Position numbers and translations under genes: made by a program. From NCBI RefSeq assembly GCF_003334815.1, contig NZ_QOWO01000086.1: DNA of 3,095 bases, one strand, 5' to 3'. The DNA is from Escherichia coli. Its GTDB lineage: Bacteria > Pseudomonadota > Gammaproteobacteria > Enterobacterales > Enterobacteriaceae. This document shows positions 1-3,095 of the stretch, piece by piece (position 1 is the stretch's first letter; the number at the start of each line of letters is the position of its first letter). A model generated the notes under the pieces. The model was not told the origin of the DNA, did no database searches, and saw nothing but the letters and a program-made list of their open reading frames with translations.

Positions 1-378
1 AATCGCTCCCCTGCGGCGACTCTTGTCATAAGAGTGCCGGAGCGTTTTTCCATCAATTGCAATGACGTCTTTATCATCTGAAGAATGGCAGTCACGCATC
101 CAGTTAATAAAGCACTCGTGAAATTTTGCAGGACTGATACAGGATACAACTCTGGCAATGGTATCGTGAACAGGAATACCATTTTCAAAATCACCATATT
201 GCTTCAAAAAATCGGGATGTGTTTCCCCAAAATCCTCTATATCTTCCCAGCCTTCTGCACCAGAAATAACGGCACAAATAGTCAACAGTAGAATATCCGA
301 TAACTTATGTTCCATTTTCCAGGCTTGTCTGTAATCGGGGATAATAGAAATATGTCCCATCAATTTTTTAAGTTCCAT
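1..378 (-). CDS. ISAs1-family transposase (H-repeat-associated protein), N-terminal 126 codons; the rest of the gene lies beyond the window start
   Basis: Absent from the ORF track because there is no stop in the window. ATG at 378-376 is preceded by AAGGAG (plus 385-390) with a 6-nt spacer, and the frame is open to position 1. My hand translation: [126 protein letters not shown]. This is colinear with the N-terminus of the 862..1608 ORF at about 60% identity by hand alignment. It matches my memory of E. coli H-rpt (YhhI-type) ISAs1 transposases; not searched. Confidence 0.85.
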
Positions 379-440
379 TTTGTTCTCCTTAATTATGTAA
401 GGAGTATTTGATCATGTGTAAGCAATAAAAAACAGCTTTA
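1..440 (-). mobile_element. ISAs1-family (H-repeat) insertion sequence, copy A, partial; the upstream boundary near 440 is approximate
   Basis: Contains the transposase start (378) and about 60 nt of upstream leader. The leader shares a TGATCAAA-containing block (plus 407-414) with the leader of the second copy (plus 1652-1659). Terminal inverted repeats could not be defined by eye. Confidence 0.55.
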
Positions 441-463
441 GGTAATAAGGAATATCTCAATTT

Positions 464-1608
464 TTAAACATAAAATGCGAATTGTTTAGTACAAAAAGTG
501 AACTTCTGATGATCTTTCCCTGTGTTTAACGCAGCCTTCTTTCTTTTCCTCTTCACCCTTAATGTCTTTGCAATCTCTTAATAAATTCAGTGCCATCTTC
601 TTTATTCCAGATATTATTTAGGCTGCGTTTCCTCTTCTTATCCGGCTGGCATCTTCATTCATTTTTACATCTAACACCCAATGAAGACTGTGCTCGATCA
701 GCCAGTGCGCTCTGATAGCATGTGCAAATTCTTTAGCATCCATATCCTTTGATGAAATATAATATCGGATGCTTACACCTTCTGCTGATTTATCTTCTTT
801 CTTCTGCCTGAATGACAATGCTACACAAAGCTTTTTTAATCCCTTCCATTCGAATTCAAAATCACAAAAGTTCAGGCGTTACGTTACTGACAATATGCAA
901 ACGTGTTTCTTTTCTTCCATGACTTATCTCCTGCGTACTAAACGAATCGCCTTTATAATTAGAAAACACATTTACAGGAAATTTTTCCTCGAATGCATGA
1001 TGTAATTTCCCCTGATTGCCTTTTACTGCCAGAAGATAATCTGCTTTTTTATCTTTGATCTTCGAAGCGATATCTTTCTGACAGCCCATAGCATCAATGG
1101 TTATCAAATTTTTCTTTAAATACAGTAGGTTAAGCAACTCTGGAATGGCTGTAATCTCATTACTTTTGGCTTCCGTTTTCACCTGCCCCAGTACAACACC
1201 ATTTTCGTTCGAGAATGCACTCACCATATGGATTGCTCCTTTTCTTTTTCCCTTATCAAAGGAGCCTCTTATGGTCTTTCCATCTATTGCTATAATTTCA
1301 CCATCAGTGATTTCATGGCACTCCTGCATCCATTCAATAAACATCTTTTCAAAGGCCAAACTGTCAATGTTACTCACAACGCGTGCAATGGTGTCATCGA
1401 CCGGAATGCCATTATCAAAATCACCATATTTCTTTAGCCATTCAAGTCTTTCATGTCCAAAATCTTCAATTTCCTGCCACTCATCGGCACCTGCAATTAC
1501 TGCACATACGGTGAGAAACAAAATAGCAGATAATTTATGTTTAACCTTTCCTTGTTGTCGTATATCAGGGGTCACTGAAATATAATCAAGCAGACTTTGA
1601 ATACTCAC
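464..1608 (-). pseudogene. ISAs1-family transposase (H-repeat-associated protein), disrupted: +1 frameshift near 861-864, in-frame TAA at 618-620, second frameshift near 555-560
   Basis: Track ORF 862..1608 (248 aa, MSIQSLLDYISVTPDIRQQGKVKHKLS...) is the N-terminal two thirds; the start is GTG at 1608 with AAGGA 6 nt upstream. After TPELL the protein continues in the +1 frame as [25 protein letters not shown]...[29 protein letters not shown] (track ORF 618..818, whose reported M is a TTG). This is interrupted by TAA at 618-620 where homologs have Glu. The same frame then reads IISGIKKMALNLLRDCKDIKG. A further frame change gives VKRKRKKAALNTGKD... and a stop at 464-466. Total span is about 381 codons, matching a full-length ISAs1 transposase of roughly 378 aa (length from memory). 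Confidence 0.8.
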
Positions 1609-1683
1609 CTGGCGTCCTTTTTTATCTTTTTAGTTATTCCAAAGGTTAAATTTTGATCACCTGTAGGCGTTAAAGCAAAGATG

Positions 1684-1709
1684 AAAATCGTGATTTACAT
1701 CACAATTTT
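1684..1709 (-). repeat. Imperfect inverted repeat / hairpin (11-nt arms, 4-nt loop); candidate weak terminator for the rhs-immunity transcript or an IS-end structure
   Basis: Plus strand reads aaaatcgtgat-ttac-atcacaatttt. On the minus-strand RNA the arms AAAAUUGUGAU / AUCACGAUUUU pair fully with one G:U wobble. It lies about 80 nt downstream of the small-ORF stop (1790) and about 75 nt upstream of the copy B transposase start. The stem is AT-rich and the U-run is inside the stem, so it is weak as an intrinsic terminator. Confidence 0.2.
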
Positions 1710-1789
1710 CATGATCTTGCCCTGCCCCGTCCCTTGCTCTCATGTCTTTCTGTATGTATTTTATATTTTTCTCTTTCTGGTGTTGTTCA

Positions 1790-1945
1790 TTATGACCATT
1801 TACCAATCCAGTCAAAAACTTCATTTTTCAAATTGTTATCATAATAATCAACATCATAATAGTCTCCATAATTAATTATTTTATAACTAGCCTTCTTGTT
1901 TTTATCACTAAAATACACCCGTTGTTTTGTAGCGCAGAACTCCAT
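1790..1945 (-). CDS. Small hypothetical protein (51 aa from ATG 1945; 62 aa if GTG 1978 is used); status uncertain, possibly a frameshifted 3' extension of the immunity gene
   Basis: Track ORF 1790..1978; the reported M at 1978 is a GTG. Internal ATG at 1945-1943 is preceded by GGAG (plus 1949-1952, 3-nt spacer). Peptide MEFCATKQRVYFSDKNKKASYKIINYGDYYDVDYYDNNLKNEVFDWIGKWS. It is AT-rich like the neighbouring immunity gene and I see no family resemblance. Confidence 0.3.
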   Translation of the reverse strand: MEFCATKQRVYFSDKNKKASYKIINYGDYYDVDYYDNNLKNEVFDWIGKWS

Positions 1946-1968
1946 ATTCTCCAGTTTACTAATGTTTT

Positions 1969-2271
1969 TTAATCGCACGCTATAAAGAATATCATTGAAA
2001 AATTAAGATTTATATCAACCACTCCACAGTGCGTCCTGTAATTATTAACCATTATACTTATAAAATGACCATTCCCTCTACTAATTTTTTGGTCATTAAT
2101 TATTTTATAAATAATATTTTTTTCAGAAAGATATATCTCAACGCTCTTTGGTGTTTTATGTCCATAAAATACGATGTCAGAATTTGAATTGTTATCAAAC
2201 CCAAGGTAAACAACAAATAAACAAAGGGTAATTAAAAAAATGACAAGTTTGCCTCTAATAATTTGAAGCAT
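1969..2271 (-). CDS. Putative Rhs immunity protein, 100 aa, with N-terminal signal-anchor / transmembrane segment
   Basis: ATG at 2271-2269 overlaps the rhs stop (TAG at 2257-2255) by 17 nt. Strong SD AAGGGAG (plus 2277-2283) with a 5-nt spacer. N-terminus MLQIIRGK + [17 protein letters not shown] is a positive n-region followed by a 17-residue hydrophobic stretch, then a polar run DNNSNSD. The gene is very AT-rich (13/60 G+C in the hand-counted sample 2101-2160). Position directly downstream of an Rhs toxin tip is the canonical immunity location. Confidence 0.6.
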
Positions 2272-3095
2272 CTGAACTCCCTTGCTTTGCTTTTATTGGA
2301 TTATCTGCTTTTATACCATCTAACCCGAAGAGTTGCCCAGTGTTATATTTTTCAATACATGCATCGCTACATTTGGCAGAAAAATCGCCACAAGCAATAC
2401 CGACAGTGTTATTTTTAAGATCCATGATTCTTTCTTTAGCTGGCTGACCTTGTCTATCCCCTGCCGCCTCATGATTTTTACCTATCACGTCAGCTATTGT
2501 TGATCCAAATGTCTTAGTCATTCGACACATCAAGTAACAATGTCTCATTGCATCGGCGGCCCCATTATGAGCTCCGCCAACAATAGCATCCATATCATAA
2601 CCGAACTGGTAAGCACTGTTAGTAATGCTGTTTGCAGCAATCAATCCAGGTACACCAGATACGGCATAAATTAGTCCACCTGATGTCATATTCTCAATCG
2701 CATCTAACCCCATTGGGTCTATCACTTGTATGGGATTCAACGGATACTGATACATATTCCATCCACCTCTCAACCCAATCGGGTCCGGGGTGATATACCG
2801 CCCCTGCAACGGATCGTAGTGCCGGTGACGGTTATAGTACAGCCCCGACTCCTCATCATGCTGCTGCCCTGGCAGACGGTACGGCTGGTGCAGGTGATGC
2901 GGGTTCTCCTCATTAAGCTGGTTGCCCCATTCATCATACTCCCCGCGCCACGCCGTATTGCCGTCTTCGCTGATGAGCGCCAGCGGCAGGCCCCGGTGGT
3001 CGCAGTGGTAAAAATGAACTTTTCGCGCCGGTGTGTATTCCGGCTCCACCTGTCTGGCCAGTTGCTCCACCGTCAGCCCGCACTGCGCAAGCCAC
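2255..3095 (-). CDS. Rhs family protein, C-terminal portion (end of Rhs core plus C-terminal toxin domain); 5' part of the gene lies beyond the window end
   Basis: Track ORF 2255..3070; the reported M at 3070 is an internal GTG and the frame stays open to 3095 (..[15 protein letters not shown]..). Contains the conserved Rhs core end [17 protein letters not shown]...YDEWGN...[56 protein letters not shown], with DPMGL at plus 2705-2719. The G+C-rich core (44/60 in sample 2941-3000) gives way to a lower-GC tip (30/60 in sample 2521-2580). Stop is TAG at 2257-2255. Confidence 0.9.
2258..2704 (-). other. Rhs C-terminal variable (toxin) domain, 149 aa, family unassigned
   Basis: Sequence after DPMGL: [149 protein letters not shown]. 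It has a His/Asp/Cys cluster [16 protein letters not shown] (plus about 2525-2569) and a second Cys cluster [13 protein letters not shown] do not recognise HNH, HExxH, deaminase (H[AC]E..PCxxC) or ART (R..STS..ExE) signatures. Confidence 0.7.

Follow-up and report, generated by a model that had tools for sequence, protein, structure and literature searches.

A truncated, multiply damaged ISEc26-type H-repeat transposase (yncI) in the RhsE region of Escherichia coli

The stretch of Escherichia coli DNA analysed here (the window, 3,095 bp in full) carries two open reading frames (ORFs) between positions 464 and 1608 that look unrelated to each other. This raises the question of whether they are two genes or the remains of one. 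The preliminary description took them for an inner H-repeat transposase that had become a multiply inactivated pseudogene. This was borne out by alignment to an intact ISEc26 element, by the match of both pieces to a single protein profile, and by the presence of the same lesions in several lineages. It is almost certain that positions 523–1724 on the minus strand hold a dead, truncated copy of ISEc26, which is the RhsE-linked H-repeat known as yncI in K-12. No observation spoke against the pseudogene reading.

At 99.9% identity, the window matches the end of the K-12 RhsE element. The MG1655/K-12 RefSeq annotation gave the following map of the window.

Positions ~2255–3070, minus strand: C-terminal part of the Rhs core protein (K-12 annotation)
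Positions ~1790–2272, minus strand: ydcD (K-12 annotation)
Positions 1690–1875, plus strand: yncO, a small ORF (K-12 annotation)
Positions 464–1608 exactly, minus strand: pseudogene "ISAs1 family transposase; frameshifted; internal stop", yncI (RefSeq, MG1655)
Positions 1–378, minus strand: first 126 codons of the ydcC coding sequence, an intact ISAs1/ISEc5-family transposase gene (K-12 annotation)

The pseudogene at 464–1608 is the already known yncI, already annotated and ordinary. Only three differences from MG1655 were seen: single bases at 163 and 1593, and an A that is absent from a homopolymer at approximately 1997. Position 163, in ydcC, is A in the window and G in MG1655. Position 1593 is G in the window and A in MG1655, a synonymous difference in codon 6 of the yncI pseudogene. 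The minus-strand run at 1992–1996 in ydcD is A5 in the window, and A6 in MG1655 and in all five loci used for comparison. The A5 run splits ydcD (160 aa in K-12) into the ORFs 1969..2271 and 1790..1978, and this allele is rare (5 of 2,458 genomes in the band of at least 99%). The A5 run is either a private frameshift in ydcD, a putative Rhs immunity gene, or an error made in sequencing this homopolymer in the source. An exact match to the whole window was found in none of the 5,426 complete E. coli genomes.

The ORF list gave the two pieces as 862..1608 (248 aa, GTG start) and 618..818. A tblastn search with YdcC, together with three-frame translation, showed that the region encodes one transposase homolog with 56% identity to YdcC, read in three frames in turn. 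The first frame runs to a TGA at 862–864, the second runs from approximately 869 past a TAA at 618–620, and the third runs from approximately 553 down. The tblastn search thus joined the two ORFs as one transposase, and their unlike appearance is explained by the lesions, as had been proposed.

Positions 865..1608, minus strand: segment A, 248 codons, with the DDE_Tnp_1_assoc domain and the first two catalytic Asp regions, IAIDGK and ITIDAMG (ORF list, NF033564, Pfam on the ortholog)
Positions 621..869, minus strand: segment B, in the second frame, with the catalytic Glu region, LIEHSLHW (tblastn with YdcC, NF033564)

Against the NCBIfam profile NF033564 (ISAs1 family transposase), segment A covered profile positions 1–218 of 314 with 293.5 bits and segment B covered positions 225–300 with 93.8 bits. 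Both scores lie above the cut-off of 70 bits; the intact ISEc26 ortholog scored 415 bits. Because the two pieces cover consecutive stretches of one profile, they are fragments of one gene and not two genes. In the intact ortholog, Pfam placed DDE_Tnp_1_assoc (PF13808) at residues 8–94 and DDE_Tnp_1 (PF01609) at residues 102–342. The same residues were found in the window copy in the domain order of the ISAs1 family, in shifted frames. A single long ORF over nearly the whole 1.2–1.3 kb element is present in the ortholog and absent from the window copy. Since the window ORF is broken into three frames with an internal stop, the copy is a pseudogene rather than a non-member of the ISAs1 family.

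The intact ortholog was found by a search of the 5,426 complete E. coli genomes, at the corresponding place in O157:H7 strains. The window inner copy and the ISEc26 of EDL933 shared 98.5% nucleotide identity over 1,190 nt. Under the ISfinder rule, elements with >95% identity are the same IS. The 98.5% identity of the window copy lies above this value, the comparison being with the EDL933 copy, whose PGAP label, "ISAs1-like element ISEc26 family transposase", is the basis of the name ISEc26 used here. Of the 1,305 bp of intact ISEc26, the inner element has the first ~1,206 and lacks the right end.

Positions 523..1724, minus strand: inner H-repeat, an ISEc26-type IS of the ISAs1 family (98.5% identity to EDL933 ISEc26)
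Positions 1708..1724, minus strand: left terminal inverted repeat, CAGGGCAAGATCATGAA (comparison with EDL933 ISEc26)

The left end of the element, CAGGGCAAGATCAT, lies at window position 1724, and the left flank from 1725 onward, GAGCAAGGGACGGGG, is identical in EDL933. The shared left flank indicates that both copies descend from one insertion event. In EDL933, the left repeat CAGGGCAAGATCATGAA pairs with the right repeat CAGGGCAAGAGCATGAA at 16 of 17 positions. The right-end partner is absent from the window, where homology stops 99 bp short of the ISEc26 right end, and the window copy therefore has a terminal repeat at one end only, where the ISAs1 family has one at each end. No clear target-site duplication was seen around ISEc26 itself in EDL933.

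Two other features lie at this left end. A perfect 14-bp stem with a 4-nt loop (ATGAAAATTGTGAT-GTAA-ATCACGATTTTCAT, then CTTTGCTTT) occupies positions 1681–1712 on the minus strand, immediately interior to the left inverted repeat. The scan marked it as terminator-like, and it is conserved in ISEc26 with one mismatch; the hairpin may block read-through transcription into the transposase gene. The yncO ORF (1690–1875, plus strand) spans the IS boundary at 1724/1725. It starts within the left end of the inner H-repeat, so that its first ~12 codons come from the IS, and the rest reads outward into the flanking DNA, overlapping the 3′ end of ydcD on the opposite strand. Because yncO begins in the IS and continues into the flank, it is a hybrid ORF made by the IS insertion.

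The lesions were fixed by pairwise and multiple base-by-base alignment to the intact ISEc26 of EDL933 (locus L002). This comparison with an intact ISAs1-family element, of the kind that had been suggested for this locus, brought out three point lesions (a +1 insertion, a TAA, and a 5-nt deletion) and a 3′ truncation relative to the intact ortholog.

Position 870, minus strand: lesion 1, one inserted nucleotide (coding-strand C, plus-strand G) within the DDE domain, near codon 247 of 390 (ISEc26 alignments)
Positions 862..864, minus strand: premature TGA caused by lesion 1 (ORF list, translation)
Positions 618..620, minus strand: lesion 2, a nonsense change of GAA (Glu330) to TAA (G to T at 620 on the coding strand versus ISEc26)
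Positions 553..559, minus strand: lesion 3, loss of 5 nt, one unit of a tandem GGGTG pair, near codon 352 (ISEc26 alignments)
Positions 1606..1608, minus strand: native GTG start codon (the same GTG and VSIQSLLDYIS in the intact ISEc26 coding sequence, WP_000027427.1)

The context of lesion 1 is CCTGAA-C-TTTTGTGAT in the window and CCTGAA-TTTTGTGAT in ISEc26. A 1-nt insertion in a T-rich run at about 861–864 had been described earlier. The insertion, the splitting of the ORF, and the TGA at 862–864 were all found, but the inserted base is the C at 870, 6–9 nt away. The GAA-to-TAA change after RRGNAA was exactly as first described. The frame change that had been suspected near 555–560 is the loss of one GGGTG unit, AAGGGTGGGGTGAAG in ISEc26 having become AAGGGTGAAG in the window. 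The remaining unit lies at 554–558, and the change moves the gene to its third frame. By its sequence, this lesion reads as a 5-nt slippage deletion. The DDE_Tnp_1 domain spans residues 102–342, so lesion 1 (at about codon 247) and lesion 2 (codon 330) fall within the catalytic domain. The GTG start, at which the paralog YdcC has ATG, had been listed among the signs of decay. The bases are correct, but they represent no damage, as intact ISEc26 also starts with GTG.

In both the pairwise and the multiple alignments, the homology to ISEc26 stops abruptly at 522/523. This 3′ truncation, the largest of the lesions, had been overlooked in the preliminary description.

Positions 1..522, minus strand: lesion 4, the outer H-repeat (ISEc5-family, ydcC), 5′ part only, which interrupts and truncates the inner element (100% match to YdcC residues 1–126)
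Positions 464..522, minus strand: annotated tail of the pseudogene, which is the left end of the outer ydcC H-repeat and starts CAGGGAAAGATCAT (no homology to the ISEc26 C-terminus)
Positions 523..532, minus strand: final 10 bp of inner-element sequence ahead of the break, GCGTTAAACA, a target site that insertion of the outer H-repeat duplicated (comparison with O26:H11)

Because the ISEc26 homology ends at 522/523, positions 464–522 of the annotated pseudogene are read-through into the neighbouring element. The outer ydcC H-repeat is 1,291 bp long with matching ends, and bases 440–523 match many H-repeat left ends across E. coli. The canonical H-rpt of Zhao et al. (1993) is said to be 1,291 bp, which agrees with the measured length of the outer element. 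Missing from the inner copy are its last 99 bp, which comprise 27 codons and the right inverted repeat. In the O26:H11 locus (L005), GCGTTAAACA comes directly after the right end of the outer element (...CTTGCCCTG), with the missing 99 bp of ISEc26, right inverted repeat included, next to it; GCGTTAAACA also precedes the left end of the outer element. The presence of GCGTTAAACA on both sides of the outer element in O26:H11 indicates nested transposition with a 10-bp target-site duplication.

The ISEc26 3′ remnant was also sought after the right end of ydcC in K-12. It was absent there, and the sequence that follows is an unrelated flank upstream of pptA. A simple nested insertion was rejected for K-12 on this ground, as the remnant is absent after ydcC in K-12 and present in O26:H11. 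Among the 5,426 complete genomes, the remnant with its flank occurred in only 603, of which ~284 were of the nested type and ~312 of the intact O157 type. The last 27 codons and the right terminal repeat are thus gone altogether from the K-12-type copy and, by its sequence, from the window copy as well.

The block formed by the Rhs tip, ydcD, yncO, and the inner and outer H-repeats was observed at two chromosomal contexts, next to pptA (L001) or next to yafV. The compared loci with the block were L001 (pptA locus), L003 (JL05), L004 (SCU-308), L005 (O26:H11), and L002 (yafV locus). The 99-bp ISEc26 3′ remnant and the 10-bp target duplication are kept only in the yafV-locus copies. This suggests that the pptA-locus arrangement of K-12 is secondary, perhaps through recombination via H-repeat/Rhs homology.

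Lesions were also seen in the outer copy. In JL05 (L003, 1667–2440), a deletion that begins within the outer ydcC-type transposase gene and ends just upstream of pptA has truncated this transposase. An internal stop or a frameshift is present in the same gene in O26:H11 and SCU-308. These lesions indicate that the outer H-repeat is also decaying in some lineages. The SCU-308 locus (L004, 2543–3674) has an extra A in several homopolymer runs compared with all other copies, and these residues are probably long-read assembly errors. Homopolymer indels from a single assembly in this region should not be over-interpreted.

The distribution of the lesions was determined with allele-specific queries of 70–80 nt against the 5,426 complete E. 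coli genomes. For the additional C at 870, the window-allele query gave 2,142 exact and 364 other matches, and the intact-allele query at the same site gave 311 exact and 2,198 other matches. The TAA at 618–620 gave 2,192 exact and 325 other matches. The 5-nt deletion was present in 2,207 genomes (1,879 exact and 328 with one mismatch), and 310 genomes had two GGGTG units. The junction of the inner and outer elements was found in 2,205 genomes at a coverage of at least 80%. The whole damaged set amounted to ~2,200 genomes (~41%), and the intact set amounted to ~310 genomes (~6%), consisting of the O157:H7 lineage and close relatives. All lesions were common to K-12-like, B1/STEC, and other lineages, and the damaged block was identical in K-12-like strains, JL05, SCU-308, and O26:H11.

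Intermediate alleles were sought through the intact 870 allele. It occurred in 311 genomes, compared with 310 that had the GGGTG pair, so at most one genome was discordant. The lack of clear intermediates indicates that the decay is old and inherited. The inner copy had only 11 substitutions in ~1.2 kb compared with intact ISEc26, which indicates that the decay is about as old as the split of the E. coli phylogroups and not ancient. The earlier view that the damage reflects long-term residence is therefore supported by the ~2,200 genomes with the lesions, and qualified by the small number of substitutions. As the damaged and intact sets segregate cleanly, the locus can serve as a simple marker of lineage, with O157:H7-type strains on one side and most A/B1-type strains on the other.

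These counts and alignments also bear on other explanations of the two ORFs. One is that the transposase is naturally encoded in two parts and that programmed +1 frameshifting at CUU-UUG-UGA links them, a device known from IS1/IS3-type elements and prfB; the gene would then be functional. If tRNA-Leu slipped by +1 from CUU to UUU at 870–867, the ISEc26 frame would indeed be restored, and the UGA lies one codon later. However, the A site would not contain the stop codon when the ribosome is at the slippery codon. The intact ortholog and the ISAs1 profile each consist of one ORF and show no frameshift here, and slippage would leave the TAA at 618–620, the 5-nt deletion, and the missing 3′ end in place. 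Programmed frameshifting was rejected on account of the downstream stop, the deletion, the truncation, and the ortholog that does without a frameshift, and we give it practically no chance. Natural separate genes, which would have overturned the preliminary description, are likewise at odds with the single ORF of the intact ortholog and of the NF033564 profile. Errors of sequencing or assembly in the window are just as hard to credit and have a negligible probability. The window does have one rare homopolymer difference elsewhere (A5 for A6 at 1992–1996, 5 of 2,458 genomes), but none of the three point lesions lies at a long homopolymer, and each of them, as well as the junction, is identical in ~2,100–2,200 independently assembled complete genomes. 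Sequencing error was ruled out by these population counts.

A third explanation accepts that the transposase is dead and supposes that its 248-aa N-terminal fragment is still produced and has been kept because it regulates or inhibits ISAs1 transposases such as YdcC in trans. Inhibition by truncated transposases occurs in other IS families. A Shine-Dalgarno-like AAGGA motif and the native GTG start are both preserved in the first ORF, which is undisrupted in ~2,100 genomes. The fragment contains the DNA-binding-type DDE_Tnp_1_assoc domain and half of the DDE domain. Against this, the promoter/terminator scan found promoter-like sites no more often than in shuffled sequence, with none upstream of the GTG, and the conservation of the fragment is explained by the low divergence among E. 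coli genomes. The coding substitutions compared with ISEc26 were 5 nonsynonymous to 2 synonymous, which gives no sign of purifying selection, although the numbers are small. An IS10 insertion in yncI is tolerated by the K-12 lab strain XL1-Blue (PMC11148124). Retention as a regulator is therefore very unlikely. There is correspondingly little to favour the idea that positions 865–1608 are expressed as a truncated, DNA-binding, catalytically dead protein that would modulate YdcC or other H-repeat transposases, or bind H-repeat ends, and its chance is slim. If it were true, the fragment would be a domesticated regulator rather than pure junk.

For the truncated ISEc26 pseudogene, we propose the following history. 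First, an ISEc26 element would have inserted immediately downstream of the Rhs tip/ydcD cassette. The 1,291-bp ydcC H-repeat would then have transposed into the ISEc26 3′ end, with a 10-bp target duplication, in the ancestry of most phylogroup A/B1-type strains, cutting the final 27 codons and the right inverted repeat off from the body of the element. The gene would also have gained the C at 870, the change of Glu330 to a stop (620), and the 5-nt slippage deletion (~553–559). In the K-12-type arrangement, the detached 99-bp 3′ remnant would finally have been lost altogether.

The frameshift separates the IAIDGK and ITIDAMG Asp regions from the LIEHSLHW Glu region. By its sequence, the gene does not allow translation of a full-length DDE transposase, and from the separation of the catalytic residues we infer that it cannot yield an active one. 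Having a single terminal repeat, the element would be immobile even if a transposase were supplied in trans. The inner element is thus probably an inert genomic fossil, which would be inherited vertically or by homologous recombination with the Rhs region. H-repeats are IS-like components of Rhs elements, and their transposition has reportedly never been observed, intact copies included (PMC3032704). The word "inactivated" is therefore relative to an activity that has itself never been demonstrated.

Beyond correct annotation, the importance of the locus is slight; it illustrates IS decay within an Rhs element in textbook fashion. In MG1655, yncI was reported to be truncated by a stop at amino acid 249 (PMC11148124), and it was described as a pseudogene in MG1655 and as intact in O157:H7 Sakai, where it is named ISEc26 family transposase (PMC11540155). 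The present analysis adds the exact bases of the three point lesions, the native status of the GTG start, and the assignment of the annotated 3′ tail (464–522) to the neighbouring element. It also adds the nested-insertion origin, documented by the 10-bp target duplication, and the clean two-state allele distribution across E. coli (~2,200 versus ~310 of 5,426 genomes).

Three known systems can be compared with the window copy. The outer YdcC/ISEc5-family H-repeat (1,291 bp) belongs to the same IS family as the inner element and has the same domain order and orientation, and the two have similar terminal repeats (CAGGG[A/C]AAGAT...). However, YdcC has only 56% amino-acid identity to the inner copy, and it is intact, with 378 aa and an ATG start. 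ISEc26 of EDL933/Sakai (transposase WP_000027427.1) is 1,305 bp long with two inverted repeats and one unbroken 390-codon ORF. In O157:H7, it shares with the window copy the left flank, the left inverted repeat, the GTG start, and the neighbours yncO, ydcD, and the Rhs core. The +1 insertion, the nonsense codon, and the 5-nt deletion set the window copy apart from ISEc26, as does the loss of the last 99 bp through the nested ydcC element. The closest match is yncI of K-12 (b1458/b1459), an H repeat-associated, RhsE-linked transposase pseudogene with the same locus, coordinates, and lesions as the window copy. Inside the pseudogene, MG1655 yncI differs from the window copy at one synonymous site (1593).
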